Below, piece after piece: positions 5,462 through 28,310 of a DNA stretch of 64,000 nt (positions within the stretch are counted from its first letter, which is position 1; the number at the start of each line of letters is the position of its first letter). Position numbers and translations under genes: made by a program. The notes beneath the pieces were generated by a model. That model was given only the letters and a program-made list of their open reading frames with translations. It ran no database searches and was not told where the DNA came from. The stretch is from Pseudomonadota bacterium (lineage in GTDB: Bacteria; Pseudomonadota; Gammaproteobacteria; Pseudomonadales; Pseudohongiellaceae): the NCBI GenBank assembly GCA_041178065.1, contig JBEGWB010000155.1:1497-65496 (forward strand), given 5' to 3'.

Positions 5462-5564
5462 CCCGAACCTCCCAGTTCTCCCATTTTCCCGCGATGGACA
5501 GCATCGCGTGGGCTGTTTATGCTCGCGGCAGATATAAAAACAGGCCGTAGATTCAGGGGGAAAC

Positions 5565-10537: not shown

Positions 10538-11143
10538 ATGAAATTCGAAGTACCGCCCTTACCGTATCCCCGGGATGCGCTGGAACCGGCGATGAGCCGC
10601 AACACGCTGGAGTTCCACTACGAGAAACACCACAAGGGTTACATGGCAAAACTGAAAGCCGCGCTCGAGGGCACCCCTGACGAAAGCAAGTCGCTCGAAG
10701 AGATCGTGCGTTCGTCGCGCGGCTCCGTCTTCAACAATGCGGCGCAGGTGTGCAATCACACCTTCTTCTGGAAAAGCATGAAACCGGGCGGCGGTGGCGT
10801 GCCGCCGTCCGGTCCACTACTCGACATGGTCAACGAGGATTTCGGTGGCTGGGATGGCTTGCGCAAGCAACTGATCCAGAGCGGCGTGGATCGTTTCGGT
10901 TCGGGCTACGTATGGCTCGTGCTGAAAGGTTCGCACCTGAAAGTGCTGAGCACCGGCAACGCGGAGACTCCGCTGATCACCAGCGCCAAGCCACTGTTGA
11001 CCTGCGACCTGTGGGAACACGCGTACTACCTCGACTATCAGAACCGGCGCGACACGTTCCTGGAGACGTTCTGCGACAAGCTGGTCAACTGGGACTTCGC
11101 GCTGAAGAACCTGAACGAATCACGCGTGCAGCAGGTAGTCTGA
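10538..11143 (+). CDS. sodB: Superoxide dismutase [Fe]
   Basis: LPYPRDALEP, EFHYEKHHKGY, NNAAQVCNHTFFW and DLWEHAYYLDYQNRR. RBS AGGAGG. Confidence 0.9.
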   Translation: MKFEVPPLPYPRDALEPAMSRNTLEFHYEKHHKGYMAKLKAALEGTPDESKSLEEIVRSSRGSVFNNAAQVCNHTFFWKSMKPGGGGVPPSGPLLDMVNEDFGGWDGLRKQLIQSGVDRFGSGYVWLVLKGSHLKVLSTGNAETPLITSAKPLLTCDLWEHAYYLDYQNRRDTFLETFCDKLVNWDFALKNLNESRVQQVV

Positions 11144-11270
11144 TCCTGAGGCCTCGAGGGCAGACGACTCACTGTTCATTTGTTCAACAGCCAGGGGGCG
11201 TCCACCGGGCCTGTTCCCCGCGTCTTCAGTCAGTGTAACCTCCAGTACTCACACGGGAGGAAGCCGGGCA

Positions 11271-12662: not shown

Positions 12663-12691
12663 CTTGCATCCGGCAAGCTGGAGGAAGGGAT

Positions 12692-13315
12692 ATGGCGATT
12701 TCGAAAACCTTAAAGAATGCCGACGACGACAAGCCCCTTAAGACCATCCGCGAAGCCATCGGCATTTTCCACAACGCAGACACGCTGCACGCCGCGATCG
12801 ACGAACTGATCGCCGCCGGTTTCACGACCGACGAGCTCGGACTCCTCGCCAGCGAACAGGTCGTCGAAAATTCCCTCGGCGACCTCTATGAGCGCACCAA
12901 CGACAATCCCGAATCCACAGATGCGCCCGCGATTGCCTTCGTGCGTCGCGATACGCTCGGTGAAACGGCGCGTACGCATTTCGCCAGCCTTTTCTTCGTC
13001 GGTACCGGCGGCGTCATGGGCGGGCTCATCGCGACGGCTGCTGTCGTCGCCAGTCCCTTGCTGGTTGCGCTTGGCGCGGTCGTTGGTGTCGGTATGGTCG
13101 GTGCGGCCGCGGCCGCCTTCATTCACCAGAGCGACGCCGAATACCTGCAGCAGCAGGTCGATGAAGGCCAGATCCTGTTGTTCGTGCGCATCGATGACGC
13201 ACGCGGCCAGCAGGCCATGAACATCCTGAAGCGCCACAGCGGGCTCGACGTGAAGATGTACGAAGTTCCTGTCACGACTGAAGCGCCCAATTCGGCGCGC
13301 GCCATCAATACCTGA
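12692..13315 (+). CDS. Hypothetical protein with a central Gly/Ala-rich hydrophobic segment
   Basis: RBS GGAGGA. 207 aa. Hydrophobic stretch FFVGTGGVMGGLIATAAVVASPLLVALGAVVGVGMVGAAAAAF. No family recognised. Confidence 0.5.
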   Translation: MAISKTLKNADDDKPLKTIREAIGIFHNADTLHAAIDELIAAGFTTDELGLLASEQVVENSLGDLYERTNDNPESTDAPAIAFVRRDTLGETARTHFASLFFVGTGGVMGGLIATAAVVASPLLVALGAVVGVGMVGAAAAAFIHQSDAEYLQQQVDEGQILLFVRIDDARGQQAMNILKRHSGLDVKMYEVPVTTEAPNSARAINT

Positions 13316-13355
13316 ATGTCAGCCAGCGCTTGTATGCATCAGAGTGTTGGCTACC

Positions 13356-13427
13356 CCCGAGATTCTTCATGTGCCCGAGATTTTTCATGCCCCCGAGGTT
13401 TTTCATGCACCCGAGGTTTTTCATGCA
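13356..13427 (+). repeat. Four tandem 18-bp repeats (CCCGAGRTTYTTCATGNN) just upstream of and in frame with sodC
   Basis: Units at 13356-13373, 13374-13391, 13392-13409 and 13410-13427. Units 3 and 4 are identical (CCCGAGGTTTTTCATGCA). Each unit carries an ATG; units 3 and 4 have GAGG 6 nt before it, units 1 and 2 have GAGA. Confidence 0.95.
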
Positions 13428-14001
13428 AATGAAGCGACAGGTCCCACTGCTATTTGCCACGCTCTTTTTGCCCGGCATGGCCGGCGCCGCCAGCGACGCG
13501 CAGCTGATCGTCCAGATGAACAGGGTGACCGATGCCGGTGTCACCGAGCCGCTTGGCGAGATCCTCATCGTCGACGTGGCGCATGGCGTCGAACTGCGGC
13601 CCGCGCTGACCGGGCTCGCGCCGGGCCAGCATGGTTTTCATGTGCATGAGTTCGGCAGCTGTGATCCCGGCATCGATGAGTCGGGAAAGGCGGTAGCCGC
13701 GCATTCGGCCGGCGAACACTACGATCCCGATGGCGCCGACCAGCATGGCTCGCCACTGGCCAACGATGGCCACAAGGGCGACTTGCCGATACTGAACGTC
13801 GGCGCCGACGGTCGCGCCACGATAGTCATGCAAGCCTCGCGTCTTCGCATCGACGACCTTGCGGGACGCGCGCTGATCATCCATGCCGGCGGCGACAATT
13901 TCACTGACGTACCGCCCAACGGTGGCGGTGGCGCACGCGTCGCCTGCGGCGTGATTCCGGGCCAGCCCGAAGCCTTGCCGTTGCCACAGTCCGCGCAGTA
14001 G
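13423..14001 (+). CDS. sodC: Periplasmic superoxide dismutase [Cu-Zn]
   Basis: Signal peptide MKRQVPLLFATLFLPGMAGAAS. HGFHVHEFGSC, GHKGDLP and HAGGDN...GGGGARVACGVI. The start is ambiguous among in-frame ATGs at 13369, 13387, 13405, 13423 and 13429. Confidence 0.9.
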   Translation: MQMKRQVPLLFATLFLPGMAGAASDAQLIVQMNRVTDAGVTEPLGEILIVDVAHGVELRPALTGLAPGQHGFHVHEFGSCDPGIDESGKAVAAHSAGEHYDPDGADQHGSPLANDGHKGDLPILNVGADGRATIVMQASRLRIDDLAGRALIIHAGGDNFTDVPPNGGGGARVACGVIPGQPEALPLPQSAQ

Positions 14002-14014
14002 TGTTGAAACTGGA

Positions 14015-14050
14015 CAGGCCGCGCTGATCCTTGTCGATCAGCGCAGCCTG
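14015..14050. terminator. Hairpin between convergent sodC and the katE operon
   Basis: CAGGCCGCGCTGATC-cttgtc-GATCAGCGCAGCCTG, imperfect with one mismatch. No strong T-run. Confidence 0.4.
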
Positions 14051-14104
14051 TTGCGACAGGCAACCCTGGCGCAGCGAGCGTTCCTCGACGCGTCCGGGCA
14101 CTGG

Positions 14105-14689
14105 TCAGCGACTCTTCTCCGCCTTCGCCGCAGCCAGTGCCGACGTCACATGTTGTTCCTCTTCCGGCGGCGGCAACATCGCTTCGAGGCCAAGGGCCTG
14201 TAACCACAGCTCACGGCACCAGCCCCTGGTGTGGTACAGATGTTCGTCTTCTTCATCTTCGACCTGCTCGTAAGCCTGTTGCAGCGCCGCGCCCTGTTCG
14301 GGCGGCAGCGCCTTGGCGCATTTGCCCATCAGGTGCCAGTTCATGTGGTCCTTGGTTTCGGCATGCACGACGCATTCGCAGGCCACCAGCTCGGCCGCGG
14401 TCGGATCGTTTGCGGCGAGCGCCATCTTCATGGCGATGACGAGGGACTTGCCGTTGTGCTCGACGATCTTGCGTCCCGGCGTGATTTCGCCGGGATCCAG
14501 TCCAAGCGACTCGCACACGGTCGTCATGACGAGCACGTGGTTTTCTGTCTGCGCCAGATACTTCTCCCACTCTTCACGCAGGTCCTCGTTGAGCACGCAC
14601 TCGAGCGCAGTGCGGTATACCAAAACTCCGCCGCGTTCATGTTCGAGCGCCTGCAGTAGAAGTTCTTTCACTTGCGGGGCTAGTTTCAT
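14105..14689 (-). CDS. Hypothetical all-helical protein, possibly a ferritin-like four-helix bundle, co-transcribed with katE
   Basis: Starts 26 nt after the katE stop. RBS GGGAGA. Several E/H-rich helices (ALEHERGG, AQTENH, HAETKDH). Family not recognised. Confidence 0.45.
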   Translation of the reverse strand: MKLAPQVKELLLQALEHERGGVLVYRTALECVLNEDLREEWEKYLAQTENHVLVMTTVCESLGLDPGEITPGRKIVEHNGKSLVIAMKMALAANDPTAAELVACECVVHAETKDHMNWHLMGKCAKALPPEQGAALQQAYEQVEDEEDEHLYHTRGWCRELWLQALGLEAMLPPPEEEQHVTSALAAAKAEKSR

Positions 14690-14715
14690 TGCGATGTCTC
14701 CCTTGTCAGCTGCGT

Positions 14716-17169
14716 CTATACGACCGGCGGATCGGTTTCGCGTGCAAAGTGCCGGTGCATCGAGATGGCCTCCGCGAATGCGGCAAATGCGCCATCGCCT
14801 TCCTCCGCCGCAAATTGCAGCAGGCCGGGATCCGCTTCACCGTCGGGCAGGGCGGGTGGTATGCCCGCCTTGTCGAGCAGCGCAGTCGCGGCGCCCAGCA
14901 GCAGAATTGGCTTGCAATGCCGGTACTGGTCCTTGAGGAATTCGATTGCGTGGCCGCTGTGCGACAGCGCCTGCACGCCGGCCTCTCCGTCCGGCAGCAC
15001 GAGCGCGTCGTACAGCACGGACGGGCCCGCCTCGAGGGAAATCTCGACTTCAATCGGCTCACCATCGCCGGTCGTGACCGGGCCCAGCTTGATGCCAACA
15101 AAGCGTGGCACTGCGCCTTCCGCGGCAAGCTGCTGATGCAGATTGAGAAGACTCTGTCCCGCAACTCCATCGGCAACCATGACGGCAATCCGCCGTGCCT
15201 GGATTCCGGTTTCACCGGGCCGCGCGAACAGCGACAGTGCTGGCGACTCCGTGACTTCCGGTTTCGGCGCCCGTGGCAATACGCGCGGCAATGGGTCGGG
15301 CAGTTCCATGCCGAGTCCGTCGGCGACGCCCTGCGCCAGTTCCTCGGCGACGTTGCGCAAGCCGGCGACCATGCGGCGCCTGATCGCAACGGTTTGCACT
15401 TTCGTCAGCTCGAAGCGGAAGGCGCGGATGATGTGTTGCTTCTCGACATCGGTCTGGCTGTTCCAGAACAGCGTGGCCTGGTTGTAATGCTCGGCGAACT
15501 TCTCGGGCTTGCCGCGTACCTTGTGTTCTTCGGTTTGCTCCGGGAAGGACATGAAGCCTTTGGTACCCGCCTGGAACGGGCAGCCACCGGCCAGCGAGTT
15601 TGGCTCGTAGGCCACGCGTCCGCGCGGAATCGCCTGGCGATGGAAGCCGTCGCGCTGGTTGTTATGCACCTGGGCAACGGACGCGTTGATCGGAATTTCA
15701 TGGAAGTTGGGACCGCCGAGCCGCGTGATCTGCGTGTCGACGTAGGAATGAATGCGCCCCGCAAGCAAGGGATCGTTGCTGAAGTCGAGGCCAGGCACGA
15801 TATGCGCCGTGCAAAACGCAACCTGCTCGGTTTCCGCAAAGAAGTTGTCAGGATTGCGATTGAGCACCATGCGCCCGATCGGCCGCACAGGGATCAGCTC
15901 TTCCGGCACGATCTTCGTGGCGTCGAGTATGTCGAAGCTGAAATCCTCCGCCTGCTCCTCGGTGAACACCTGGATGCCGAGCTCGTACTCGGGATAGGCG
16001 CCGGCCTCGATCGCTTCCCACAGGTCGCGACGATGGAAGTCCGGATCCGCGCCGGAAATCTTCACGGCTTCGTCCCAGGCGAGCGAATGCGTGCCGGCCA
16101 GCGGTGTCCAGTGGAACTTGACGAACACTGACTTGCCGCCCTCGTTGATGAAACGGAAGCTGTGCACGCCAAATCCCTGCATCGTGCGATAGCTGCGCGG
16201 GATCGCGCGGTCGGACATCACCCACATCAGCATGTGCGTCGATTCCGGCATCAGCGAGACGAAATCCCAGAAAGTGTCGTGCGCCGACGCAGCCTGCGGC
16301 ATCGCGTGATGCGGTTCGGGTTTGACCGCGTGCACGAGATCGGGAAACTTCATCGCATCCTGGATGAAGAACACCGGGATGTTGTTGCCCACGAGGTCCC
16401 AGTTGCCTTCGTCAGTGTAGAACTTCACGGCGAAGCCACGCACGTCGCGTGCAGTGTCGGTGGAGCCACGTTCGCCGGCGACGGTCGAGAAACGCACGAA
16501 CACCGGCGTGCGCTTGCCAGCCTCGGCGAAGATCGACGCGCGCGTCAGCTCGCCCAGCGGCTCGTAACATTCGAAGTAGCCGTGCGCCGCCGAGCCGCGC
16601 GCATGCACGATGCGCTCGGGTATGCGTTCGTGGTCGAAGTGCGTGATCTTTTCGCGCAGGATGAAGTCTTCGAGCAGGCTTGGGCCGCGCAGCCCCGCCT
16701 TCAGTGAATTCTGGTTGTCGGCAATTGGCACGCCCTGGTTGGTCGTGAGCACGCGGCCGCTGGAATCGACCCGGACCCGATCCAGCGGACCATTGCCGGG
16801 GTTGAAACTCATCTGCGGATTGCCGCTGCCCGCTTTCTCCGACGCGTTCTCTTCAGACAGCGTGCTCGCGCCGACGATCGGATCCGGTGGATCCGCGGTC
16901 TGCCCCTCGGCCGGCATCATCGCAGCCGTGCCGTACTCGGAGGCTTTCGCCGCATTGTGCGGAAAGGCGTTCGCCAGCAGTTCCGTGCCCTCCATTTTCT
17001 GCGCGGCAAGGTCGGCGCTGCCGGATTCGCGATGCGTGGGACCACTCATCGTCGAGCGCGCTGATGTTGCGGTGTCGCTGCGGGCTTTGCCGCTTGTGCT
17101 GGCGGAAGGAGAGGACTTTTTCGAGGGGCGTTTTTCTGCCGATTTTGTCGGCGGTTTTTTTGCAGCCAT
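14716..17169 (-). CDS. katE: Large-subunit catalase (HPII type)
   Basis: [32 protein letters not shown] and [19 protein letters not shown]. Carries an extra C-terminal flavodoxin/DJ-1-like domain. 817 aa with a long Lys/Ser-rich N-terminus. Confidence 0.9.
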
Positions 17170-17387: not shown

Positions 17388-19328
17388 TTAGTGATTCAGT
17401 CGCACGACGCCGACCTGCGGCAGTGCCGCGAGGCCAATATCGCGAGCATGCTCTTCAAAACCCTTGTTCTTCCAGAAGAAGGCGCCGGGCATCGTGGTCG
17501 GGATGACGAGCACGTAGAACAGCGCGCGACCGACGAGGCTCGTTATCAGCAGGCCGAGCATCAGCAGTGTCCAGGACATGAGGCTCAATACGAGCGTCGA
17601 GCTGAACATCGCCGCGAAGGCAAGCAGCAGGTTGAAGCCGAGCAGGGCGTTGCGCAGCACATAAGTTTTGCCGAAGGTGGTTGTCTGGATGTAGTGCGAA
17701 ACCGCGCCTTCATGTTCCTTGCCATCCATTGCAAGCGCATGTGCGCGCAGGCCGATTCCCTGCAACACCAGGCCGATGCACACGGCCGCGCCGCCAGCGG
17801 TCAGCACGGGCATGGCCTCGCCGCCGCGCGCGAGTTCGAGGATCACTCCGCCGCTGCCGATCAACGCGCCGCCGAGCGCGAGCGCCGAGCCGCAGAAATC
17901 CGTGGCGACCTGCCAGTGATCCCAGAAGGGGCGCGCCTTGATGCGGTAGCACTTGATCATGTAGTAGAGGCCGCCCGCGGCGCCGAGCAACGCAACCATG
18001 CCGAAGCCGTTGGCGATCGCCGTGGCGACGGCTGCCGACACGAGGTCCATGACTGCGGCGCCAAACAGCGCCGAGTACAAACCCTGGAAGATGCTGTTGC
18101 CCGGCAACGAGAACAGCAGGTGCAGTCCCAGCATGCCGATGAAGACCGCGATGCCAAAACCTTCGCGGCACACCGGCGAATAGCGCAGGTTGTTGAAGCC
18201 GCGGTAGAAGCGCAGCGGCTTGCCGAGGTGCGTTGTCGACATGAACATGCCGCCGGACACGAGCACGAAACTGGCGAGGCAGAGCAGCGCATAAGCCGGC
18301 GAGTTGCGCAGGCCGACCAGCACTTCGATCTTCAGCAGGCTGCCGACGAAAGCCAGCGCGAAGGCGCCGATCGCGGCCTGCGTGCCGAGCGTGAACAGTA
18401 CGAGTGGATTCTCGCGCGAGCTGAGGCGGCCGATATTCCACAGGCGCAGGCGTCCAGACTTCTGGTCGACGCGCGGTTTGTAGTTGCCGTTCGCGTCCTT
18501 GTGGTACTTCACCGGCATCGTGTCGGTACGCGTGACTTCTTCCGGCAACGTGCGCGTCTGCTGGAAGCGAATGTTCGGGTGCGTGATCGAGGGGTCGGGG
18601 AAGCCAGGGATCGTAACCTTGGCTTCCTCGCGGTTTTCCGGAATGTTCTCGATGACGCCGAAGTCGAGCGCGTTACCGAGACAGGCCGAGACGCAAGCGG
18701 GCTTCAAACCGACTTCCAGACGATCGACGCACATGTTGCATTTCGATACCTGGCCCTTGATCGGGTCGAGCTGCGGCGCGTTGTACGGACAAACCCAGGT
18801 GCAATAGCCGCAACCGAAACAGGTTTCAGGATCCTGCAGCACGGCGCCGTACTCGGTGTGCTTCGTGTAGGCATTTGTCGGGCAGCCCTTGAGGCACACC
18901 GGATCGTCGCAGTGGTTGCAGGCCATCGAGATGTTCATGCGCTTGTAGTCGGGATAGCAGCCGCCTTCGACGTAGCCGACGGAGCGAAAGGCGATGTGTC
19001 CCGGATTGTCGTTCTTCTCGCTGCACGCGGCTTCGCAGGCATGGCAACCGATGCAGTTGTCGGCGGTGAAAAAGAAGCCATGCTGCTTGTTGCGGTTCGG
19101 GTTGCAGCCGACTTCCGTATTACCGTTGATGAACAGCGGCTGGCCTTCGGCCCAGGTGGGGTTCAGCTGCAAGAGGTCGATCTTGTGGCCGTAGCGGTTC
19201 TCCGGCTGAATCTCCTTGTCGGACAGCAAGGCGTATGGCTGCTCTTCCGTGCGCATTTCCCACAGCGAACTGGCAGCTGGTGGCGTTACGGGGTCCTTGC
19301 GCGGATCGAATTCGACTACTTGATTCAT
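17388..19328 (-). CDS. Fusion of a 4x[4Fe-4S] DmsB-like ferredoxin domain with a DmsC/NrfD-like polytopic membrane anchor
   Basis: Cys clusters CIGCHACEAAC, CNHCDDPVCLKGCP, CFGCGYCTWVCP and CNMCVDRLEVGLKPACVSAC. These are followed by about 8 hydrophobic helices including HLGKPLRFYRGFNNLRYSPVCREG. Starts 23 nt after the catalytic subunit gene. Confidence 0.75.
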   Translation of the reverse strand: MNQVVEFDPRKDPVTPPAASSLWEMRTEEQPYALLSDKEIQPENRYGHKIDLLQLNPTWAEGQPLFINGNTEVGCNPNRNKQHGFFFTADNCIGCHACEAACSEKNDNPGHIAFRSVGYVEGGCYPDYKRMNISMACNHCDDPVCLKGCPTNAYTKHTEYGAVLQDPETCFGCGYCTWVCPYNAPQLDPIKGQVSKCNMCVDRLEVGLKPACVSACLGNALDFGVIENIPENREEAKVTIPGFPDPSITHPNIRFQQTRTLPEEVTRTDTMPVKYHKDANGNYKPRVDQKSGRLRLWNIGRLSSRENPLVLFTLGTQAAIGAFALAFVGSLLKIEVLVGLRNSPAYALLCLASFVLVSGGMFMSTTHLGKPLRFYRGFNNLRYSPVCREGFGIAVFIGMLGLHLLFSLPGNSIFQGLYSALFGAAVMDLVSAAVATAIANGFGMVALLGAAGGLYYMIKCYRIKARPFWDHWQVATDFCGSALALGGALIGSGGVILELARGGEAMPVLTAGGAAVCIGLVLQGIGLRAHALAMDGKEHEGAVSHYIQTTTFGKTYVLRNALLGFNLLLAFAAMFSSTLVLSLMSWTLLMLGLLITSLVGRALFYVLVIPTTMPGAFFWKNKGFEEHARDIGLAALPQVGVVRLNH

Positions 19329-19351
19329 ATGACCTGCTTCATTATCGACAA

Positions 19352-21541
19352 CTAGAATTTGCGGCGTTCCATGTTCAGCCGCGCCGCTTCGTCCTGATCC
19401 ACGTTTTCAATCTTCACGCAGCACTGCTTGAATGCCGGCTGCCGGGAATAGGGATCGAGCAGGCCGAGCGTCAAGCGGTTCACGCAATCGTGGAAGTGGA
19501 AGGGGATGAATACCATGTTCGGCGGCACGCGCTGCGTCAGCTGCACCATGACGACTGCATCGCCGCGCTTCGACACGACGCGCACGTACTGTTGATGCTG
19601 GATGCCGAGTTTCTCGGCGGCGTCCGGATTCATTTCCATGAATGCCGTCGGACTGAACTTGTTGCCGTTGGCGAGCTTTCCGGTACGCGTGCGTGTATGG
19701 AAATGCTCGACCAGGCGACCACTGTTCAACCAGAACGGAAACTCCTTGTCGGGCTTTTCGTTGTTGTCCTTGAAGCGCACGGAAATCAGGTTGGCCTTGC
19801 CGTTGTGCGTGGGGAACTTACCATCGGCGTAGAGGCGCGCGAGGCCTTTGAGCCCCTCATCGCCTTCGCGGTAGGGCCATTGAATGCCGCGCGCAGCTTC
19901 GATCCTGTCGTAGGTCATGCCGGAAATGTCGAGCGTGCGGTTCGCGCCTTTCGACAGCTGTTTCATTTCGTCGAAAACGTCCTCGGTCTCGGTCGGGAAC
20001 TTCATGTTCTGCGCATTGGGAAAGCGCTTCGCCATTTCGTTGAAGATCCAGAAGTCGGGTTTCGAGTTGGCCAGCGGTGGCACGGCATTGCGCGTGAGGT
20101 TTACACGGCGCTCGGTATTCGTGTGGCAGCCCTGCTTTTCAGCCCACACGGCCGCGGGGAAGTAGGCGTGCGAATACTGGTTGGTTTCGACGTCGGCATA
20201 GCAGTCCTGCACCACGGTGAACTCGAGCTTCTCCATCATCTTGCGGATGCGGCCGGTGTTCGCCATCGAGGTCATCGGGTTTGTTGCAACGAGCCACAGG
20301 CCCTTGATCTCGCCGGTTTCGATCGCCGGGAAAATATCGGTCTGCGCGAGCCCGCGCGTCTTCGGGAAGAACTCGGGGTCCACGCCCCAGAACTCGCCGA
20401 TCTCGCGGCGATGCTCTTCCTTCTCGAGGAAACGATAGCCGGGCAAGCCGGAACATGAGGACCACTCGCGCGTGCCCATCGCATTGCACTGGCCGGTGAT
20501 CGACAGGCTGGTGCCGCCCGGCTTGCCGATGTTGCCGGTGACGAGGTTCAGGTTGTTGATGTTGCACACGCCGTCGGAGCCGTGCGTGCTCTGGTTGATG
20601 CCCATCGTCCAGATGCTCATCGCCGCCGGCGCTTTGGCGTACAGCCGCGCCACGAGCCGGATCGTGTCTTCGTCGATGCCGCAGATATGCTGCGCCTTGA
20701 CCGGGTCGTAGTCCTGCACCGTCTGTGCCAGCTCTTCGAAGTTGTTCGTATGTGCCGCGATGTACTCCTTCGCCTGCAGGTTCTCCTTGAAGATGACGAA
20801 CAGCATGGAGTTGATCAGCACGCAGTCGGTGCCGGGCGTGATGGGGAGGTGGATGTCCGCGAACTGGGCGAACATCGTGACGCGCGGATCGACGACGATC
20901 AGCGGGAACTTGCGCTTCTCGCGCGCTTCTTTCAGGCGCCAGTAGATCACGGGATGCTGCTCGGGCAGGTTTGAGCCGAACGCCATCAGGCAGTGCGTAT
21001 GTTCGAAATCGTCATAGCAACCAGGCGGACCGTCGAGGCCAAAGGAGCGCTTGTAGCCGGATACCGCCGAGGCCATGCACAGGGTCGTGTTGCCGTCGTA
21101 GTTATTCGTGCCGATGCAGCCGCGGGTCAGCTTGCCGAGTGTGTAGAACTCTTCGGTCAGCAGCTGGCCGGTGGAGACGATCGCGAACGAGTCACGGCCA
21201 TACTTCTGCTGGATGCGCTTGATGTTGGCCGCGGTGTAATCGAGTGCTTCGTCCCAGGTGGTCTTCTTGAAGGGTTCCTGCCAGCGATTGCGGATCAGCG
21301 GATCGGTGCCGCGGCCACTGGAGTTGAACAGCTCATGTTCCTGCAGGCCCTTGATGCAGAGCTTGCCTCGATTGACGTCGGCGCCGGCGTGGCCGCGCGA
21401 AGTAATGACCTTGCCCTCGGCATTGATGCCGAGCTCGATCGTGCAGCCGGTAGAACAGTAGTTGCATGTCGCGTATTTCCATTCCTTGACCGGCTTCGGT
21501 GGAATGACGATTGGCTTTCTGTCTTTGCGTCCGAACAACAT
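19352..21541 (-). CDS. Molybdopterin oxidoreductase, NasA/NarB-type (assimilatory-like) nitrate reductase catalytic subunit, no Tat signal
   Basis: KYATCNYCSTGC (N-terminal 4Fe-4S), TLCMASAVSGYKRSFG, GQCNAMGTRE and a C-terminal PFHFHD...RQPAFKQCCVKIE beta-barrel domain. ATG 21541 has AAGGGA upstream. The track start 21616 (TTG) overlaps the predicted promoter. Confidence 0.75.
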   Translation of the reverse strand: MLFGRKDRKPIVIPPKPVKEWKYATCNYCSTGCTIELGINAEGKVITSRGHAGADVNRGKLCIKGLQEHELFNSSGRGTDPLIRNRWQEPFKKTTWDEALDYTAANIKRIQQKYGRDSFAIVSTGQLLTEEFYTLGKLTRGCIGTNNYDGNTTLCMASAVSGYKRSFGLDGPPGCYDDFEHTHCLMAFGSNLPEQHPVIYWRLKEAREKRKFPLIVVDPRVTMFAQFADIHLPITPGTDCVLINSMLFVIFKENLQAKEYIAAHTNNFEELAQTVQDYDPVKAQHICGIDEDTIRLVARLYAKAPAAMSIWTMGINQSTHGSDGVCNINNLNLVTGNIGKPGGTSLSITGQCNAMGTREWSSCSGLPGYRFLEKEEHRREIGEFWGVDPEFFPKTRGLAQTDIFPAIETGEIKGLWLVATNPMTSMANTGRIRKMMEKLEFTVVQDCYADVETNQYSHAYFPAAVWAEKQGCHTNTERRVNLTRNAVPPLANSKPDFWIFNEMAKRFPNAQNMKFPTETEDVFDEMKQLSKGANRTLDISGMTYDRIEAARGIQWPYREGDEGLKGLARLYADGKFPTHNGKANLISVRFKDNNEKPDKEFPFWLNSGRLVEHFHTRTRTGKLANGNKFSPTAFMEMNPDAAEKLGIQHQQYVRVVSKRGDAVVMVQLTQRVPPNMVFIPFHFHDCVNRLTLGLLDPYSRQPAFKQCCVKIENVDQDEAARLNMERRKF

Positions 21542-21600
21542 GGCGCGTGATTCCCTTTGATGCAGTGGCCCTGCTTCACGGCAGGTGCAAATAGGGAATA

Positions 21601-21615
21601 GCAATAAGTGCACCA
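21601..21615 (-). promoter_or_regulatory. Candidate sigma-54 (-24/-12) promoter for the nitrate reductase operon
   Basis: The minus strand reads TGGTGC-ACTTA-TTGC with exact GG-N10-GC spacing. It lies about 60 nt upstream of ATG 21541. Confidence 0.45.
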
Positions 21616-21944: not shown

Positions 21945-21960
21945 TGGTGCGCCTCTTGCA
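21945..21960 (+). promoter_or_regulatory. Candidate sigma-54 (-24/-12) promoter for nirBD and transporter
   Basis: TGGTGC-GCCTC-TTGCA with exact GG-N10-GC spacing. It lies about 55 nt upstream of ATG 22014. Confidence 0.45.
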
Positions 21961-22013
21961 TTGGCCCTCACGTGAAGAATTCAACGCAGTGAATGCTGCA
22001 GGTCAGGGCGACG

Positions 22014-24566
22014 ATGGCGAAGCAAAGAGTAATAGTAGTAGGCAATGGCATGGTGGGGCATCGCTTCATCGAGTATCTGCTGGCACATGCGCGCGCCAAT
22101 GAATTTTCGATCACGACCTTTTCCGAGGAATCGCGTCTTGCTTACGACCGCGTGCACCTGAGTGCATACTTCACTGGTTCCACTGCGGCCGATCTCGCGT
22201 TGACGACGCGCGAAAAATATCGCGAACAGGGCGTCAACTACATCCTCAGCGACAAGGTCGTGCACATCGACAAGGCCAACAAGACTGTTACGACGCAGTC
22301 GGGCCGGGTCGAGCCGTGGGACAAGCTGGTTCTCGCCACGGGTTCCTATCCTTTCGTGCCTCCGGTGCCCGGCCACGACCGCGAACATTGCCTCGTGTAC
22401 CGCACCATCGACGACCTCGGCCGCATCAAGGTGTCCGGGGCCCAGAGCAAGGTTGGCGTAGTCGTTGGTGGCGGGCTGCTCGGCCTCGAGGCCGCGAATG
22501 CGCTCAAAGGCATGGGACTTGAAACGCACGTGGTCGAATTCGCGCAGAAGTTGATGGCCGTACAGCTGGACGACGGTGGCTCCAAGTTGCTGCGCCGCAA
22601 GATCGAAAACCTCGGCGTGCGCGTGCACACCGGCAAGAATACGACCGCGATCGTCGACGGTGAAACCTGCCGCTACCGCATGAACTTCGCCGACGGCACG
22701 TTTCTCGAAACTGACATGATCCTGTTCTCCGCCGGCATCCGCCCGCAGGACGAACTGGCGAAACATTGTGAAATCGCGCTTGGCGCGCGCGGCGGCATCG
22801 AAATCAACGATAACTGCCGTACGTCGGAGAAAGACATCTACGCCATCGGTGAATGTGCGCTGTGGAATGGCCAGATCTTCGGCCTCGTCGCGCCCGGTTA
22901 CCAGATGGCCAAGGTCGCCGTGGCGCAGATCACCGGCGGCGATGAAAAGTTCACCGGCGCCGATATGAGCACGAAGCTCAAGTTGCTCGGCATCGATGTT
23001 GCCAGCGTCGGCGACTCGACCGCGCGCACGCCCGGCGCGCGCTGCTATTACTACAACGACGACTTCGCTGAGGTGTACAAATGCCTCGTCGTGTCGAACG
23101 ACGGCAAGAAGCTGCTCGGCGCCGTGCTGGTGGGCGAGGCCGAAGACTTCGGCAACTTCCAGCAGCTGATGCTGAACAGCATCGACCTGCCGGACAATCC
23201 GCAGGCGATGATCCTGCCCGGCATCGAAGGTGGCAAACCGGCGCTTGGTGTCGACGCCCTTCCCGACACGGCGCAGATCTGCTCCTGCTTCGACGTCAGC
23301 AAGGGCACGATCTGCTGCATGGTCCAGGAAGGCAAGAGCCTTGGCGACATCAAGGCGGCGACCAAAGCATCAACGGGCTGCGGCGGTTGCGCCGTGCTGC
23401 TGAAGCAGGTCGTCAACGCTGAACTCGCGAAGCTCGGCGTCGAGGTCAACAATCATCTGTGCGAGCATTTTGCGTATACGCGCCGCGAACTTGCCGACCT
23501 GGTCCAGGTCAGGAAGATCCGCACCTTCGCCACGCTGCTGAGCGAACACGGCAAGGGTCATGGCTGCGATATTTGCAAGCCTACGATCGGGTCGATTCTT
23601 GCGTCCTTCTGGAATGACTATGTACTGCAGCCGGAACATGTCGGCCTGCAGGACAGCAACGACCACTTCCTTGGCAACTTGCAGAAGGACGGCACCTATT
23701 CCGTGGTGCCGCGTATCGCGGGCGGCGAGATCACGCCGGACAAGCTGATCGTGCTCGGCCAGGTCGCGAAGAAATACGATCTGTATACGAAGATCACCGG
23801 CGGCCAGCGCGTCGACCTCTTTGGCGCGCGCGTGGACCAGCTGCCCGGCATCTGGAAAGAACTCGTCGACGCCGGCTTTGAAACCGGCCATGCCTACGGC
23901 AAGTCGGTGCGCACGGTTAAATCCTGCGTGGGCTCGACCTGGTGCCGCTACGGCGTCGATGACAGCGTGGGCTTCGCGATTGAAATCGAAGAACGCTACA
24001 AAGGCCTGCGCTCACCGCACAAGCTGAAGTTTGCCGTCTCGGGCTGCACGCGCGAATGCGCCGAAGCGCAGTCGAAGGATGTTGGCATCATCGCCACCGA
24101 AGGCGGCTGGAACCTGTACGTGTGCGGCAACGGTGGTATGCGGCCACGGCATGCGGACCTGCTAACGACCGGGCTCGATCGCGAAACGCTGATTCGCTAC
24201 GTCGACCGCTTCCTGATGTTCTACTGCCGCACAGCCGATCGCCTGCAGCGCACTTCGGTGTGGCTCGAAAACATGGAAGGCGGTATCGACTATCTCAGGC
24301 AGGTGGTCGTCGAGGACAAACTCGGGCTCGGCGCCGAACTCGAGCAGGGCATGGCCAACGTTGTTGCGACCTACCAGTGCGAGTGGAAGACGACGATCGA
24401 GGATCCTGAACGTGTCAAACGCTTCCGCCAGTTCATCAACTCCGACAAGAAGGACCAAAGCCTTGCCTACGTCATCGAGCGTGGCCAGCGCCGTCCCGCC
24501 ACGCGCGAAGAACGTGCCGCTGGCAAGGCGGTGGAACTGATCACACTCACGGAAGAGAACGCTTGA
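22014..24566 (+). CDS. nirB: NAD(P)H-dependent assimilatory nitrite reductase large subunit
   Basis: VIVVGNGMVGHRF and VGVVVGGGLLGLEAA (Rossmann folds). ICSCFDVSKGTI (BFD-like 2Fe-2S). SCVGSTWCRYG and AVSGCTRECAEA (sirohaem/4Fe-4S). Confidence 0.92.
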   Translation: MAKQRVIVVGNGMVGHRFIEYLLAHARANEFSITTFSEESRLAYDRVHLSAYFTGSTAADLALTTREKYREQGVNYILSDKVVHIDKANKTVTTQSGRVEPWDKLVLATGSYPFVPPVPGHDREHCLVYRTIDDLGRIKVSGAQSKVGVVVGGGLLGLEAANALKGMGLETHVVEFAQKLMAVQLDDGGSKLLRRKIENLGVRVHTGKNTTAIVDGETCRYRMNFADGTFLETDMILFSAGIRPQDELAKHCEIALGARGGIEINDNCRTSEKDIYAIGECALWNGQIFGLVAPGYQMAKVAVAQITGGDEKFTGADMSTKLKLLGIDVASVGDSTARTPGARCYYYNDDFAEVYKCLVVSNDGKKLLGAVLVGEAEDFGNFQQLMLNSIDLPDNPQAMILPGIEGGKPALGVDALPDTAQICSCFDVSKGTICCMVQEGKSLGDIKAATKASTGCGGCAVLLKQVVNAELAKLGVEVNNHLCEHFAYTRRELADLVQVRKIRTFATLLSEHGKGHGCDICKPTIGSILASFWNDYVLQPEHVGLQDSNDHFLGNLQKDGTYSVVPRIAGGEITPDKLIVLGQVAKKYDLYTKITGGQRVDLFGARVDQLPGIWKELVDAGFETGHAYGKSVRTVKSCVGSTWCRYGVDDSVGFAIEIEERYKGLRSPHKLKFAVSGCTRECAEAQSKDVGIIATEGGWNLYVCGNGGMRPRHADLLTTGLDRETLIRYVDRFLMFYCRTADRLQRTSVWLENMEGGIDYLRQVVVEDKLGLGAELEQGMANVVATYQCEWKTTIEDPERVKRFRQFINSDKKDQSLAYVIERGQRRPATREERAAGKAVELITLTEENA

Positions 24567-24574
24567 GAGGCGCT

Positions 24575-24940
24575 ATGAACGCAGCAGGAAAAATCATGAA
24601 CGAAGTCTGGACAACGGTCTGCAACGAAGACGATCTCGTCATCGGCTCCGGGGTGTGTGCGCTGCTCGACCAGGGCGGCAAGCAGGAACAGGTCGCGCTG
24701 TTCCGCGAAACCCGCGACGGCCCGGTGTATGCGATTGCGAACTACGACCCTGTCGGCGATGCATATGTATTGAGCCGCGGCATCATCGGCTCGATCGGTA
24801 CCCGCATCGTTGTCGCCTCGCCGCTGTACAAGCAGCACTTCTGCCTCGAATCGGGTCTCTGCCTCGAAGATCCGAAGGTCAGCGTCAAAGCCTGGTCCGT
24901 GCGCATCGAGAGTGGAAAGGTACAGCTGAGGACGGCGTGA
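24575..24940 (+). CDS. nirD: Nitrite reductase small subunit
   Basis: Follows nirB directly (GAGAGG RBS). About 120 aa. Pattern WTTVCNEDDL...GVCALL...QVALFR...VYAI.NYDP, typical of NirD. Confidence 0.85.
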   Translation: MNAAGKIMNEVWTTVCNEDDLVIGSGVCALLDQGGKQEQVALFRETRDGPVYAIANYDPVGDAYVLSRGIIGSIGTRIVVASPLYKQHFCLESGLCLEDPKVSVKAWSVRIESGKVQLRTA

Positions 24941-25062: not shown

Positions 25063-26529
25063 ATGTCCGCCGAAAAGTTCAACCTGCTCAGTTTTACGGG
25101 CAAGATGAAGATCCTGCACATGAGCTGGCTGGTCTTCTTCGTCACCTTCGTCGTCTGGTTCAACGCCGCGCCGCTGATGCAGGCGATTGCACTGAGTCTC
25201 GGCGTCACGGCGCAGGAGCTGGTCGTGCTCGCAACCGTCAACGTGGCGCTCGCCGTGCCGGCGCGCGTGTTGATCGGCATGCTGACCGATCGCTACGGCC
25301 CCCGCATCATGTACTCGGTACTGCTGGTGCTGGGCTCGCTGCCCTGCTTCTGGTTCGCCACGGCCGACACGCTCGGTGAAGCGGCGCTGGCGCGTTTCTT
25401 CTGCGGCTTTATCGGCGCGGGCTTCGTCATCGGCATCCGCCTCGTCAGCGAGTGGTTCCCGGCAAACGAGCTGGGCACCGCGGAAGGACTGTACGGCGGC
25501 TGGGGCAACTTCGGTTCCGCGGCCGCGGCCTTCACGCTGCCAGCGCTTGCGCTGTGGTTTGGCGGCGACGACGGCTGGCGCTATGCGGTTGCGATTACCG
25601 GTGTCATGAGTTTCATCATGGGCTTCGTGTTCTACGTCAACGTGCGTGATACGCCGAAGGGCTCCACCTACTTCAAGCCGAAGACGCTGGGCGCAATGGA
25701 AGTCACCAGCGTCGGCGACCTCGTGATGCTGTACGTCATGAAGCTGCCGATGTATGTGTGCCTCGTATTGCTCGCCTGGCGCCTGTCGCCGGCCGGCTTC
25801 GGCCTGATCAGCGCCAGCGTGACCAGTCTCATCTACGCTGGCGTGTTCCTCGTACTGCTGGTCGATTTCCGCAAGGTGTGGGTCACGAACCGCAGTCTGT
25901 TCACCGTTCCCGTCGCCGACCTGCACCGCTACAAGTTCAAGCAGGTCGCGATCCTCAACATTCTGTACTTCGCCAATTTCGGCTCCGAGCTTGCGGTGGT
26001 GTCGATCCTGCCGCTGTTCTTCGCCGAAACCTTCGAGCTGACGCCCGTATGGGCCGGCATCATTGCCTCGACGCATGCCTTCCTCAACCTCGTGTCGCGC
26101 CCAGGCGGTGGCTGGTTATCCGATAAATTCGGCCGCAAGAAAACCTTGTTGATCGTCACCGCCGGGCTCGCCGCCTCGTACTTCCTGACGAGCTACATCA
26201 CCAGCGAATGGTCGCTGCTGGTCGCCGTGTTCGTGGTCATGCTCTGCGCCTTCTTCGTGCAGGCGGGCGAGGGCGCGGTGTTCGCGACGGTGCCGCTGAT
26301 CAAGCGTCGCCTCACTGGGCAGATCGCCGGCATGACCGGCGCCTACGGCAATGTCGGCGCGGTGGTCTACCTCGTCATCCTGACCTTTGTCGATTACTCC
26401 ACTTTCTTCTTGGTCATCGCCGCGTCGGCGATCATGGGTTTCGTCGCGCTGCTGTTCCTCGACGAACCGAAAGGGCAGATCGCCGAAGTGAACGAGGACG
26501 GCAGCGTCGAATTGATCCACGTAGGATAG
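25063..26529 (+). CDS. Nitrate/nitrite porter (NNP-family MFS, NarK/NasA/NrtP type)
   Basis: 12 predicted TM segments. NNP signatures GLYGGWGNFGSAAAAF and IAGMTGAYGNVGAVVY. RBS AGGAGA. Confidence 0.88.
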   Translation: MSAEKFNLLSFTGKMKILHMSWLVFFVTFVVWFNAAPLMQAIALSLGVTAQELVVLATVNVALAVPARVLIGMLTDRYGPRIMYSVLLVLGSLPCFWFATADTLGEAALARFFCGFIGAGFVIGIRLVSEWFPANELGTAEGLYGGWGNFGSAAAAFTLPALALWFGGDDGWRYAVAITGVMSFIMGFVFYVNVRDTPKGSTYFKPKTLGAMEVTSVGDLVMLYVMKLPMYVCLVLLAWRLSPAGFGLISASVTSLIYAGVFLVLLVDFRKVWVTNRSLFTVPVADLHRYKFKQVAILNILYFANFGSELAVVSILPLFFAETFELTPVWAGIIASTHAFLNLVSRPGGGWLSDKFGRKKTLLIVTAGLAASYFLTSYITSEWSLLVAVFVVMLCAFFVQAGEGAVFATVPLIKRRLTGQIAGMTGAYGNVGAVVYLVILTFVDYSTFFLVIAASAIMGFVALLFLDEPKGQIAEVNEDGSVELIHVG

Positions 26530-26561: not shown

Positions 26562-28310
26562 ATGGCACAGTCGCATACTCTCAGCATAGCCTATGGCGGC
26601 CACACCACCGCCGGTCTCAAGGAGCGCAACGAAGACGCTTTCGCTGCGCTGCTGCCGGCGAGTCAGTTGCGCTATAGCAAGGGTGCGATCGCGGCGATCG
26701 CCGACGGGGTTTCCTGCAGCGACAACGCGCGCGTGGCCAGCCAGACCAGCGTCGGCACTTTCATCCAGGACTACCTGAGCACGCCCGAAAGCTGGGATGT
26801 CAAAACCTCCGCGTCGCGCGTACTCGCCGCGTTGAATTCCTGGCTGTACTCGCAGGGCCAGGCGGCGCTGACCCGACACAACGGCTTCGTTACGACGTTT
26901 TCCGCGGTGATCCTGCGCTCGACCACCGCGCACGTGCTGCACTGTGGCGACAGCCGCGTGTATCGCTATCGCGACGGCAAGTTGCAACCGCTGACGACCG
27001 ACCACAATCTCGTACAGGGCAACGGCGATGCGACGCTGACACGCGCGCTTGGCATGGATACCGAACTCAAGGTCGACTATCAACAGCGAAGCCTGCGCGT
27101 CGACGATATCCTGCTGTTCACGACTGATGGTGTGCACGGCTTCGTCAAGCCCGCGCAACTTGCTGAAGCGCTCGCCGCGCTCGCTTTGCAAGCGCCCGGC
27201 AGCGAAGGCGGTAGCACGCCGCTCGAACAGATTGCGCGCGCGCTTATCGACAAGGCGCTCCACGCCGGCAGCAGCGACAATCTCAGCTGCCTCTTGCTGC
27301 GCGTACTCGACTTGCCGGTGGAGGATATCAACGAAGCGCACAGCAAGCTGACTCAGCTGGTGATTCCGCCCGTGCTCGCGCCGGGAAACAGGCTCGATGG
27401 CTACACCGTGACGAAGATCCTGCACAACGGTTCGCGTTCGCATCTGTATCTCGCCACGCATCCGCGCTACCGCCAGAAGTTCGTGCTGAAGGCGCCGTCG
27501 CCAAACTTCGCCGAGGATCCGCAGTATCTCGAAGGGTTCATGCGAGAACAGTGGGTTGGTCGCCGCATCGATCATCCTGGCATCATGAAAATCCACGATC
27601 CCGTGCCCGACAGCAAGTTTCTTTATCACATCTGCGAATTCATCGACGGCGTCACGCTGCGCCAGTGGATGTACGACAACCCGAAACCCGACCTGCAGAA
27701 AGTAAGGGAGTTCGCGAAGCAGATCGCGGCCAGCCTGCGCGTACTGCAACGCCTCGGCATGCTGCATCGCGATCTCAAGCCAGACAACATCATGCTGACC
27801 CAGGCCGGCGAAGTTAAACTGATCGACTTCGGCACCGTGCAGGTCAGCGGCCTGCAGGACATCGCCAGTCCGCTGCGCGAAGACACGCCGGTGGGCACAG
27901 CCGACTACATGGCGCCGGAATACCTCCTCGGCGAACGCGGCGCGCATCGCTCCGACATTTTCTCTTTCGGCGTCATCATCTACGAATTGCTGACCGAAGC
28001 ATTGCCCTTCAGGACGCCTCAGGCCGGACGCAAGCTGGATTACAGCTTCTGGAAATACCGCAGCGCGCTGGAACTGCGCAAGGACCTGCCCTTGTGGATG
28101 GATATCGCCATGCGCAAGGCCTGCGCGCCGCGGCCTTCACAGCGCTACGCCGCGCTGTCTGAATTCCTGCACGACCTCGAAGTACCGAACCAGCACTTGC
28201 TTGCGGCGGAGCAGCATAAGCCGCTGATCGAGAATAATCCGGTGCGGTTCTGGCAGGTGGTATCGGCGCTGTTGCTGATGCTGCTGGTGCTGCAGGCCTG
28301 GTTGTTCTAG
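26562..28310 (+). CDS. Bifunctional PP2C-type phosphatase / Hanks-type Ser/Thr protein kinase with C-terminal TM anchor
   Basis: N-terminal GLKERNEDAF, FTTDGVHG and GSSDNLSC (PP2C). HRDLKPDNIM, IDFG and ADYMAPE (kinase). C-terminal FWQVVSALLLMLLVLQAWLF. Confidence 0.85.
   Translation: MAQSHTLSIAYGGHTTAGLKERNEDAFAALLPASQLRYSKGAIAAIADGVSCSDNARVASQTSVGTFIQDYLSTPESWDVKTSASRVLAALNSWLYSQGQAALTRHNGFVTTFSAVILRSTTAHVLHCGDSRVYRYRDGKLQPLTTDHNLVQGNGDATLTRALGMDTELKVDYQQRSLRVDDILLFTTDGVHGFVKPAQLAEALAALALQAPGSEGGSTPLEQIARALIDKALHAGSSDNLSCLLLRVLDLPVEDINEAHSKLTQLVIPPVLAPGNRLDGYTVTKILHNGSRSHLYLATHPRYRQKFVLKAPSPNFAEDPQYLEGFMREQWVGRRIDHPGIMKIHDPVPDSKFLYHICEFIDGVTLRQWMYDNPKPDLQKVREFAKQIAASLRVLQRLGMLHRDLKPDNIMLTQAGEVKLIDFGTVQVSGLQDIASPLREDTPVGTADYMAPEYLLGERGAHRSDIFSFGVIIYELLTEALPFRTPQAGRKLDYSFWKYRSALELRKDLPLWMDIAMRKACAPRPSQRYAALSEFLHDLEVPNQHLLAAEQHKPLIENNPVRFWQVVSALLLMLLVLQAWLF

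Follow-up and report, generated by a model that had tools for sequence, protein, structure and literature searches.

A candidate quinol-linked, cytoplasm-facing nitrate reductase combining a Nas-lineage catalytic subunit with a DmsB–DmsC-type membrane fusion

Bacterial assimilatory nitrate reductases have two recognised types of electron donor, NAD(P)H and ferredoxin or flavodoxin, and are treated as soluble enzymes. The classical members of this Nas group (Klebsiella and Ralstonia NasA, S. meliloti NarB and the fused Nas of Bacteroidota) share an N-terminal [4Fe-4S] cluster, a molybdenum–bis(pyranopterin guanine dinucleotide) (Mo-bisPGD) centre with a Cys-Met motif and a common TGQxNAMGxRE motif; they carry no twin-arginine translocation (Tat) signal, are cytoplasmic and occur in a nirBD/narK context. 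Here we analysed a 64-kb stretch of DNA from a Pseudomonadota bacterium of the Pseudohongiellaceae (contig JBEGWB010000155.1; hereafter the window), in which the gene for a 729-aa molybdoenzyme with these traits is followed by a gene for a 646-aa protein that fuses a DmsB-type iron-sulfur (Fe-S) domain to a DmsC-type membrane anchor. Compared with classical Nas, the window enzyme has neither a C-terminal 2Fe-2S domain nor a fused or separate flavin/NAD(P)H module, and its family is instead paired with the four-cluster Fe-S/membrane-anchor fusion. Its likeness to cyanobacterial NarB and B. subtilis NasC is drawn by extension from the classical enzymes.

For the membrane module, the described counterpart is E. 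coli DmsABC. The Fe-S domain of the fusion is nearest to DmsB (39–40% identity), and the anchor shares with DmsC its Pfam domain, eight helices and the residues corresponding to His65 and Glu87, with the Fe-S part on the side of the anchor termini. The window module differs in that B and C are fused, in its inverted charge distribution, and in an extra 80-aa N-terminal extension, a 22-aa insertion and a 35-aa tail; its catalytic partner lacks a Tat signal and belongs to the Nas rather than the DmsA lineage. NarGHI carries out the same overall reaction that we propose here, being membrane-bound with a cytoplasmic nitrate site and a four-cluster subunit. NarG, however, has an Asp ligand and belongs to another lineage, and the di-haem b anchor NarI oxidises quinol at the periplasmic face in a redox loop, whereas the window anchor is haem-free and its predicted quinol site lies on the cytoplasmic side. 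NapA has a similar CMASAV motif and is quinol-linked through accessory proteins; unlike the window enzyme, it is Tat-exported, periplasmic and placed in a separate clade, and its partners are cytochromes or NapGH rather than DmsBC-type proteins.

In architecture the pair resembles SoeABC, which is predicted to face the cytoplasm and combines a Tat-less molybdoenzyme, a four-cluster protein and an inverted NrfD/DmsC-like anchor with a quinone site on the N side; the match extends to architecture only. Among described anchors, SoeC alone is expected to be inverted (PMC8076601; for SoeABC see also PMC6335251), and it carries His65 and Glu87 like DmsC (PMC8076601, PMC6335251). SoeA belongs to another lineage, electrons run from sulfite to quinone, and the three subunits are separate. 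According to Wells et al. 2020, no member of the clade formed by Nas, Nap, Aio and cytoplasmic Fdh is tied to canonical four-cluster or membrane-anchor subunits (PMC7331816), and a 2023 survey by the same group treats NasC, NasA and NarB as cytoplasmic assimilatory enzymes, with no anchor mentioned in its passages on them (PMC10100899). The 2021 census of NrfD-like complexes by Calisto and Pereira includes Nrf, Psr, ACIII, Dms, Hyb, Arr, Ttr, Qrc, Sre, Nhc, Dsr, Mcc, Fqo and Soe, and no nitrate reductase (PMC8076601). A search of full-text literature, subscription journals not covered, returned no Nas enzyme described with a DmsBC or NrfD module. An earlier note on this DNA had stated that no characterised example was known; this agrees with the search as regards Nas with such a module, but SoeABC is a precedent for a cytoplasm-facing, anchored design. 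Thus, the Nas lineage, the DmsBC-type module and the SoeABC-like inversion are each known, and it is their combination, with the quinol dependence it implies, for which no precedent is known.

We propose, with a probability of about 0.6, that the pair would form a membrane-bound, two-subunit, cytoplasm-facing quinol:nitrate oxidoreductase used in assimilation, its mechanism being read from sequence, synteny and predicted structure.

The catalytic subunit and the fusion protein

Both genes lie on the minus strand (Table 1), with the fusion gene starting 23 nt past the catalytic stop codon, and they diverge from nirB, nirD and narK on the plus strand. The longest form of the catalytic open reading frame (ORF) begins at a TTG codon at position 21616, which adds 25 residues and no RR motif. 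What the earlier note had read from this region proved accurate: the coordinates, strand and spacing of the two ORFs, its quoted motifs (the FS0 cysteines, the Cys155 segment, GQCNAMGTRE and the anchor motif), the lack of a twin-arginine motif at either start, a DmsB–DmsC-type fusion with four Cys clusters and about eight helices (now seen by Pfam, cysteine conservation and AlphaFold), and divergence from nirBD and an NNP transporter (now matched by NCBIfam models). A Pseudomonadota metagenome-assembled genome (MAG) encodes a protein identical to that of the window.

The catalytic subunit contains the Pfam domains Molybdop_Fe4S4, Molybdopterin and Molydop_binding, and in Pfam searches it showed neither a flavin/NAD domain nor the C-terminal 2Fe-2S (BFD) domain of NADH-type NasA. 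Its FS0 cysteines 26, 29, 33 and 62 are found in KYATCNYCSTGC, with the CIKG lysine next, and Cys155 falls within TLCMASAVSGYKRSFG. The molybdenum-ligand motif LCMASAVSGY compares with LCMASAVGGY of D. desulfuricans NapA and has the Cys-Met of Nap and Nas; in the alignment LCMASAV is matched by LCMSSAV in NasA and HCMASA in NapA, while formate dehydrogenases have C/U-H-G-P, with selenocysteine or cysteine followed by histidine. Likewise, SITGQCNAMGTRE corresponds to SLTGQPNAMGGRE in NasA, and TGQCNAMG of the catalytic subunit, which overlaps the GQCNAMGTRE segment, stands where FdhF has RGQNNVQG with its conserved Arg.

A tree (neighbour-joining only, 697 columns, 100 bootstraps) placed the catalytic subunit in a clade with 100% bootstrap together with the Nas proteins of Klebsiella, Ralstonia, S. 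meliloti, Rhodoferax and Hymenobacter, apart from NapA and FdhF. Within this clade, the family forms its own sister branch beside classical Nas. The best annotated relatives in a plasmid collection were all called nitrate reductase (31–39% identity), and the public names of close homologues are nitrate reductase or assimilatory nitrate reductase catalytic subunit.

None of the NCBIfam equivalog cutoffs was reached by the catalytic subunit. Its highest score was for formate dehydrogenase alpha (559 bits; TIGR01591 cutoff 666), followed by NasC (506, cutoff 1100), haloarchaeal NasA (NasA_Halo; 458, cutoff 1000) and two NapA models (416 and 400, cutoffs 904 and 931), and the NapA structure 2NAP matched with 424 bits. 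The classical NasA proteins of Ralstonia, Rhodoferax and Hymenobacter gave the same sub-threshold ranking. The top formate dehydrogenase score is therefore uninformative, and the cutoff test itself discriminates little because classical proteobacterial NasA proteins fail it too. Three other identities were considered and rejected: formate dehydrogenase, raised by the top NCBIfam and PDB scores, on the motifs, the tree and the NasA control; NapA, on the missing RR motif, the scores below the NapA cutoffs and the separate clade; and NarGHI, on the low scores of the NarG and NarH models against the window pair (37 and 54 bits) and the DmsC type of the anchor. Motifs, phylogeny and annotation together mark the catalytic subunit as a Nas-lineage nitrate reductase.

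Another unusual Nas wiring is seen on a Hymenobacter volaticus plasmid (L086:5974-11020), which encodes the nearest classical relative that was found (39% identity). This nitrate reductase of 1171 aa includes, as a fusion, the flavin/NAD half of NirB; its gene is followed by one for a 496-aa protein annotated as rubredoxin, in a cluster with nirD, a major facilitator superfamily (MFS) gene and cobA.

In the fusion protein, which contains HLGKPLRFYRGFNNLRYSPVCREG, Pfam identified Fer4_11 (a 4Fe-4S dicluster domain) at residues 133–225 and DmsC (PF04976) at residues 306–607, the latter with 38.6 bits against a cutoff of 22.3. The cysteine groups of the Fe-S domain begin at residues 92, 137, 170 and 197, and all 16 cluster cysteines are invariant in 39 diverse homologues of 27–88% identity. 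The best NCBIfam model for this domain is DmsB (TIGR02951), whose score of 159 bits lies under the equivalog cutoff of 214; by sequence comparison the domain is DmsB-like rather than a DmsB orthologue. In Foldseek, the Fe-S part matched PsrB (2vpw_B), FdnH and ArrB; the matches of the membrane part were ActC (E = 6e-4) and PsrC (E = 2e-3). The AlphaFold model of the fusion has a mean predicted local distance difference test (pLDDT) score of 76, with values above 90 in the membrane part, and contains exactly eight transmembrane (TM) helices. A ninth helix, considered for the hydrophobic stretch 417–455, was rejected since the model shows a short non-membrane helix at 412–422, followed by TM4.

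The membrane part aligns with E. coli DmsC through all eight helices, the 22-aa insertion falling between TM3 and TM4 and the conserved 35-aa tail at the C terminus. His367 and Glu389 of the fusion correspond to His65 and Glu87 of DmsC and are invariant in the 39 sequences, down to 27% identity. In DmsC, replacing these residues stops quinol oxidation (PMC8076601). We infer that a DmsC-type quinol site is retained in the anchor, where quinol is predicted to bind.

The N-terminal extension carries the motif WE(M/I)RTEEQ..YA(F/L)L, conserved in the proteobacterial family; divergent fusions align from residue 80 only and do not have it. This extension may contact the catalytic subunit. In the plasmid collection, no full-length fusion was found; the membrane domain alone gave one weak match, and the closest match to the Fe-S domain came from a Rhodobacter xanthinilyticus system that also includes a TorD chaperone and a cytochrome c. 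That system was tried as a SoeBC comparator and rejected when it proved to be of periplasmic type. Database labels for the fusion vary: the JGI label is throughout "DMSO (dimethyl sulfoxide) reductase iron-sulfur subunit", "DmsC/YnfH anchor" is also used, and homologues in a SAR86 MAG and a Burkholderiales MAG (P0031, P0077) are annotated as aspartate carbamoyltransferase.

Conserved pairing and orientation in the membrane

We then asked how widely the two genes occur together, using a scan of one genome per GTDB species. Relatives of the fusion were found in at least 592 species genomes, from which 80 species loci were fetched. In 79 of these 80, the fusion gene is preceded on its own strand by a catalytic gene from the same family; the median gap between the two is 64 nt, and in 73 loci it does not exceed 300 nt. 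This breadth and pairing indicate that the two ORFs are not chance products. An exhaustive search of cluster representatives returned 8745 matches, with full-length fusions down to about 27% identity. Even a fusion of 47% identity follows a catalytic gene that is 56% identical to that of the window and has the same motifs, with a P-II gene just upstream, and a second distant fusion (39% identity) is likewise paired, the catalytic partners of both being 56–60% identical. The fusion protein is thus likely the physical partner of the catalytic subunit, an association to which homology and synteny point.

The sole exception is a Burkholderiales MAG (L010, fusion gene at 4885-6786), where no catalytic gene was found in the upstream 4.8 kb; this locus may genuinely differ, or its state may stem from rearrangement or from faulty assembly.

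Carriers include Cellvibrionales, Porticoccus, SAR86-labelled MAGs, Shewanella, Colwellia, Thalassotalea, Pseudoalteromonas and Pseudomonas fluvialis, together with many Burkholderiales, Rhodoferax, Polaromonas and Roseateles among them. Two MAGs have non-proteobacterial labels (L004, Gemmatimonadales; L066, Flavobacteriales) and encode proteins 61–79% identical to proteobacterial ones, which may reflect horizontal transfer or binning contamination. In many loci, nirB, nirD, narK, the gene for a PP2C-kinase fusion and cobA adjoin the pair, in layouts that vary from the divergent arrangement of the window to nirBD, catalytic gene and fusion gene on one strand; related loci also carry an ANTAR regulator or a P-II gene.

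A further small ORF recurs directly 3′ of the fusion gene in at least 37 of the 80 loci. This ORF, here called c3, encodes about 130 aa with the motifs NPDYLVTW and WW.W.P and often overlaps the fusion gene or starts within 20 nt of it (L084:12052-12447, L085:12069-12440, L013:9981-10382). It matched no Pfam family and showed no signal peptide, and neither the window nor its closest relatives (L001, L002) contain it. Its product may be a third subunit or an assembly factor.

No Tat motif of the RR type and no hydrophobic N-terminal region was detected in any of 120 catalytic and 120 fusion homologues, while the same test was positive for the controls E. coli NapA, E. coli DmsA and Paracoccus NapA. 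The N-terminal extension of the fusion likewise showed no Tat or Sec signal. An anchor of eight helices has its two termini, and with them the fused Fe-S domain, on the same side of the membrane. We counted lysine and arginine residues (K+R) around 15-residue helix cores, and also with looser boundaries. Across 120 family members, the terminus side holds on average 18.5 K+R (minimum 15) and the other side 1.5 (maximum 4), and 17 divergent fusions gave 18.1 versus 2.7. In E. coli DmsC and one plasmid DmsC, the bias has the reversed sign (4 versus 7). Under the positive-inside rule, this bias would put the Fe-S domain, the quinol-site loop and so also the catalytic subunit on the cytoplasmic face. 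With the missing Tat motif, this suggests a DmsBC-like unit inserted upside down relative to its periplasmic counterparts.

Electron donor, substrate and role

In the proposed mechanism, quinol would be oxidised at the DmsC-type site (His367, Glu389) at the cytoplasmic face of the eight-helix anchor, and electrons would pass through the four [4Fe-4S] clusters of the DmsB-type domain to FS0 and on to the Mo-bisPGD centre with its Cys155 ligand. Nitrate imported by the NarK-type transporter would be reduced there to nitrite, which NirBD, encoded next door, would take to ammonium for assimilation. Quinol as donor is suggested by conserved residues, homology and synteny; the quinone type and the assimilatory role we infer as well. 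Since quinol oxidation and nitrate reduction would take place on the same side, no redox loop is expected, and the enzyme itself need not build a proton gradient. The energy conserved by quinone-reducing dehydrogenases would be kept, whereas a soluble NADH-dependent Nas would dissipate it. Given potentials of about +420 mV for nitrate/nitrite and about +100 mV for ubiquinol, the reaction would run strongly downhill.

Further support for a role in nitrogen metabolism came from putative promoters. The sigma-54 promoter pattern TGGYRC-N5-TTGCW occurs only twice in the window (0.55 expected). Both matches stand in the 450 nt between the divergent operons and point the right way, one towards each operon, which suggests nitrogen control of both. 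Among 55 related loci, 5 have a similar motif upstream of the catalytic gene where about 0.3 would be expected, an enrichment that is supportive and falls short of a family rule. A terminator-like hairpin (21646-21630, minus strand) was considered as a NasR/NasT-type leader and rejected: it lies upstream of the sigma-54-like motif, and such sites occur at chance density.

The interpretive claims of the earlier note fared well on the whole: the phylogeny groups the catalytic subunit with NasA and apart from NapA and FdhF, as expected of a nitrate reductase; the positive-inside rule puts the Fe-S domain in the cytoplasm, as it had suggested; and the survey it called for found the pair beside nirBD, narK and cobA in many genomes. 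Its remark that no separate NAD(P)H-binding nitrate reductase subunit is visible in the locus needs correction. An NAD(P)H module is present in NirB, which has FAD/NAD domains, and NADH-dependent reduction via NirBD is therefore a live rival.

Several observations weigh against an assimilatory quinol:nitrate oxidoreductase. Several loci, those of Shewanella, Pseudomaricurvus and some Colwellia among them, lack nir and narK genes within 8 kb. Burkholderiales operons also encode a classical NasA of 938 aa, with a BFD-type 2Fe-2S domain at its C terminus, as in a Rhodoferax MAG (L084:4388-15260), where nirB, nirD, catalytic gene, fusion gene, a small ORF and classical NasA follow one another in this order beside an ANTAR/NIT-type regulator; operons with both classical NasA and the pair also occur in L009, L016, L019, L035, L044 and L045. 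The pair is therefore not necessarily the sole assimilatory enzyme, or the assimilatory one, and another Nas could lie elsewhere in the genome outside the 64 kb covered. DmsB-type clusters are of low potential, and ubiquinol, which these aerobes probably use, may not drive them well. The tree contains neither cyanobacterial NarB nor B. subtilis NasC, the orientation is argued from the positive-inside rule and the absence of Tat motifs, and the Fe-S domain is modelled at a moderate pLDDT of 50–85. Finally, NirB, with its FAD/NAD domains, and the Rieske-like NirD are encoded right beside the pair and could provide electrons from NADH, as in Paracoccus.

As a side observation, these Burkholderiales hold two nitrate reductases in one operon, presumably with different electron donors.

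A rather unlikely alternative keeps the path from quinol to cytoplasmic nitrate and gives it a dissimilatory role: the pair would be an electron sink or serve low-oxygen respiration as a haem-free analogue of NarGHI, with NirBD detoxifying nitrite. Quinol-fed, membrane-bound designs are typical for respiratory enzymes (PMC8076601), some carriers (Shewanella, Colwellia, Rhodoferax) are facultative anaerobes, and the loci without nearby nir or narK, like the Burkholderiales operon that already holds a classical NasA, fit such a role. However, in the window and many other loci, the pair takes the place of nasA in the nirBD–narK–cobA cluster; the sigma-54-type motifs, ANTAR regulator and P-II neighbour indicate control by nitrogen rather than oxygen; and two cytoplasmic half-reactions would give no redox loop.

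Unlikely, too, is a soluble donor, with NADH via NirB/NirD, or ferredoxin/flavodoxin, feeding the catalytic subunit and the fusion serving as a tether or as a reversible overflow to the quinone pool. NirB/NirD-like proteins do feed Paracoccus NasC (the NasB–NasG–NasC system), classical Nas use such donors, and the Hymenobacter relative is fused to a NirB-like flavin/NAD module. Yet the C-terminal 2Fe-2S domain of NADH-type NasA is missing here, and the fusion accompanies the catalytic gene in 79 of 80 loci while nirBD is often elsewhere. This strict pairing, together with the invariant 16 cysteines and the quinol-site His and Glu, disfavours a mere tether.

It is very unlikely that the substrate is formate or another oxyanion, such as chlorate, selenate or iodate, and that co-location with nitrogen genes is incidental. 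The high rank of formate dehydrogenases among the NCBIfam and PDB scores and the failure to attain any curated equivalog cutoff would suit such a reading, but classical NasA proteins rank identically, the formate dehydrogenase signature residues (selenocysteine/Cys-His, RGQNN) are replaced by Nas/Nap ones, and both the 100% bootstrap clade with NasA and the conserved nitrate/nitrite gene context speak for nitrate. That the complex is periplasmic as DmsABC is, carried there by hitch-hiking or through a signal that escaped recognition, is scarcely credible: DmsBC-type modules are normally periplasmic (PMC8076601), but 240 homologues lack an RR motif and a hydrophobic N-region where the controls were detected, the strong positive-inside bias puts the termini and Fe-S domain in the cytoplasm, and the operons encode no Tat-bearing partner.

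A cytoplasm-facing quinol:nitrate oxidoreductase used in assimilation thus remains our preferred interpretation. A wider claim, which we regard as doubtful at present, is that the pair represents a third, undescribed class of assimilatory nitrate reductase, membrane-bound, dependent on quinol and maybe the main route of nitrate assimilation in many aquatic Gamma- and Betaproteobacteria, such as SAR86-related bacteria, Porticoccus, Cellvibrionales, Colwellia, Pseudoalteromonas, Shewanella, Rhodoferax and Polaromonas. Taken furthest, this claim would have the anchor, an inverted NrfD-like protein, move protons with the drop of about 300 mV from ubiquinol to nitrate, making the assimilatory step energy-conserving.

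Gene neighbourhood and implications

The features of the locus are collected in Table 1.

Table 1. Coordinates of the gene pair, its domains and the flanking nitrogen genes in the window.
Feature	Position	Strand	Basis
Catalytic subunit (MoA), 729 aa counted from ATG, Nas-type Mo-bisPGD, no signal peptide	19352..21541	-	Pfam, motifs, tree, annotation
FS0 [4Fe-4S] domain, N-terminal in catalytic subunit	21329..21481	-	Pfam PF04879, residues 21-71
Cys155 codon, predicted molybdenum ligand	21077..21079	-	Alignment to Cys140 of D. desulfuricans NapA (2NAP)
Fusion protein (BC), 646 aa: N-terminal extension, four-cluster ferredoxin domain, linker, 8-helix anchor, C-terminal tail	17388..19328	-	
Fusion N-terminal extension, ~80 aa, conserved WEMRTEEQ motif	19089..19328	-	Low pLDDT in model
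DmsB-type domain, four [4Fe-4S] clusters	18534..19088	-	TIGR02951 159 bits, invariant Cys, fold matches
Basic linker from Fe-S domain to TM1, 10 K+R	18411..18533	-	Charge count
DmsC/NrfD-type anchor, 8 TM, residues 307-606, predicted N-in/C-in	17511..18410	-	Pfam DmsC, DmsC alignment, AlphaFold, Foldseek
Conserved C-terminal tail, predicted cytoplasmic (TTMPGAFFWKNKGFEEHARDIGLA...), not in canonical DmsC	17391..17510	-	Alignments
Sigma-54-type promoter-like motif TGGTGCACTTATTGCT, 59 nt before catalytic ATG	21600..21615	-	Pattern match
Sigma-54-type promoter-like motif TGGTGCGCCTCTTGCA, 33 nt before nirB	21945..21960	+	Pattern match
nirB, NAD(P)H nitrite reductase large subunit	21993..24566	+	PRK14989 1340 bits, TIGR02374 1090 bits, both above cutoff
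nirD, nitrite reductase small (Rieske-like) subunit	24563..24940	+	TIGR02378 103 bits, cutoff 75
NarK/NNP-family nitrate/nitrite MFS transporter	25063..26529	+	TIGR00886 320 bits, cutoff 312
PP2C phosphatase–Ser/Thr kinase fusion, directly after transporter	26562..28310	+	Pfam PP2C_2, Pkinase

The PP2C-kinase gene accompanies narK in at least about 19 of the 80 related loci, and its product is a probable post-translational regulator of nitrate uptake, acting by phosphorylation. On the other side of the pair, oxidative-stress genes occupy 10538-17169. These encode an Fe/Mn superoxide dismutase (10538-11143), a Cu/Zn superoxide dismutase (13330-14001) and, downstream of the pair, a large catalase of the HPII type (14716-17169, minus strand), extended at its N terminus by about 130 residues rich in Ser, Lys and Ala; a class II fumarase (11271-12662) lies within the same run. 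A second, unrelated molybdoenzyme is represented by a 723-aa protein (7559-9730, minus strand) with molybdopterin cofactor-binding domains of the xanthine dehydrogenase/aldehyde oxidase type. An Rfam scan of the window found one tRNA and nothing else.

If the pair is driven by quinol, nitrate assimilation would be coupled to the respiratory chain in at least about 600 bacterial species, several of which are abundant heterotrophs of marine and fresh waters. Electrons would come in downstream of complex I instead of being spent as NAD(P)H, and the energetic cost of using nitrate would change accordingly, while nitrate uptake would be tied to the redox state of the cell. The anchor would also be a second example, after SoeABC, of a DmsC/NrfD protein set upside down in the membrane. 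Labels such as aspartate carbamoyltransferase and DMSO reductase would mislead metabolic reconstructions, and because of them metagenome surveys may miscount DMSO respiration and miss part of the nitrate-assimilation machinery.

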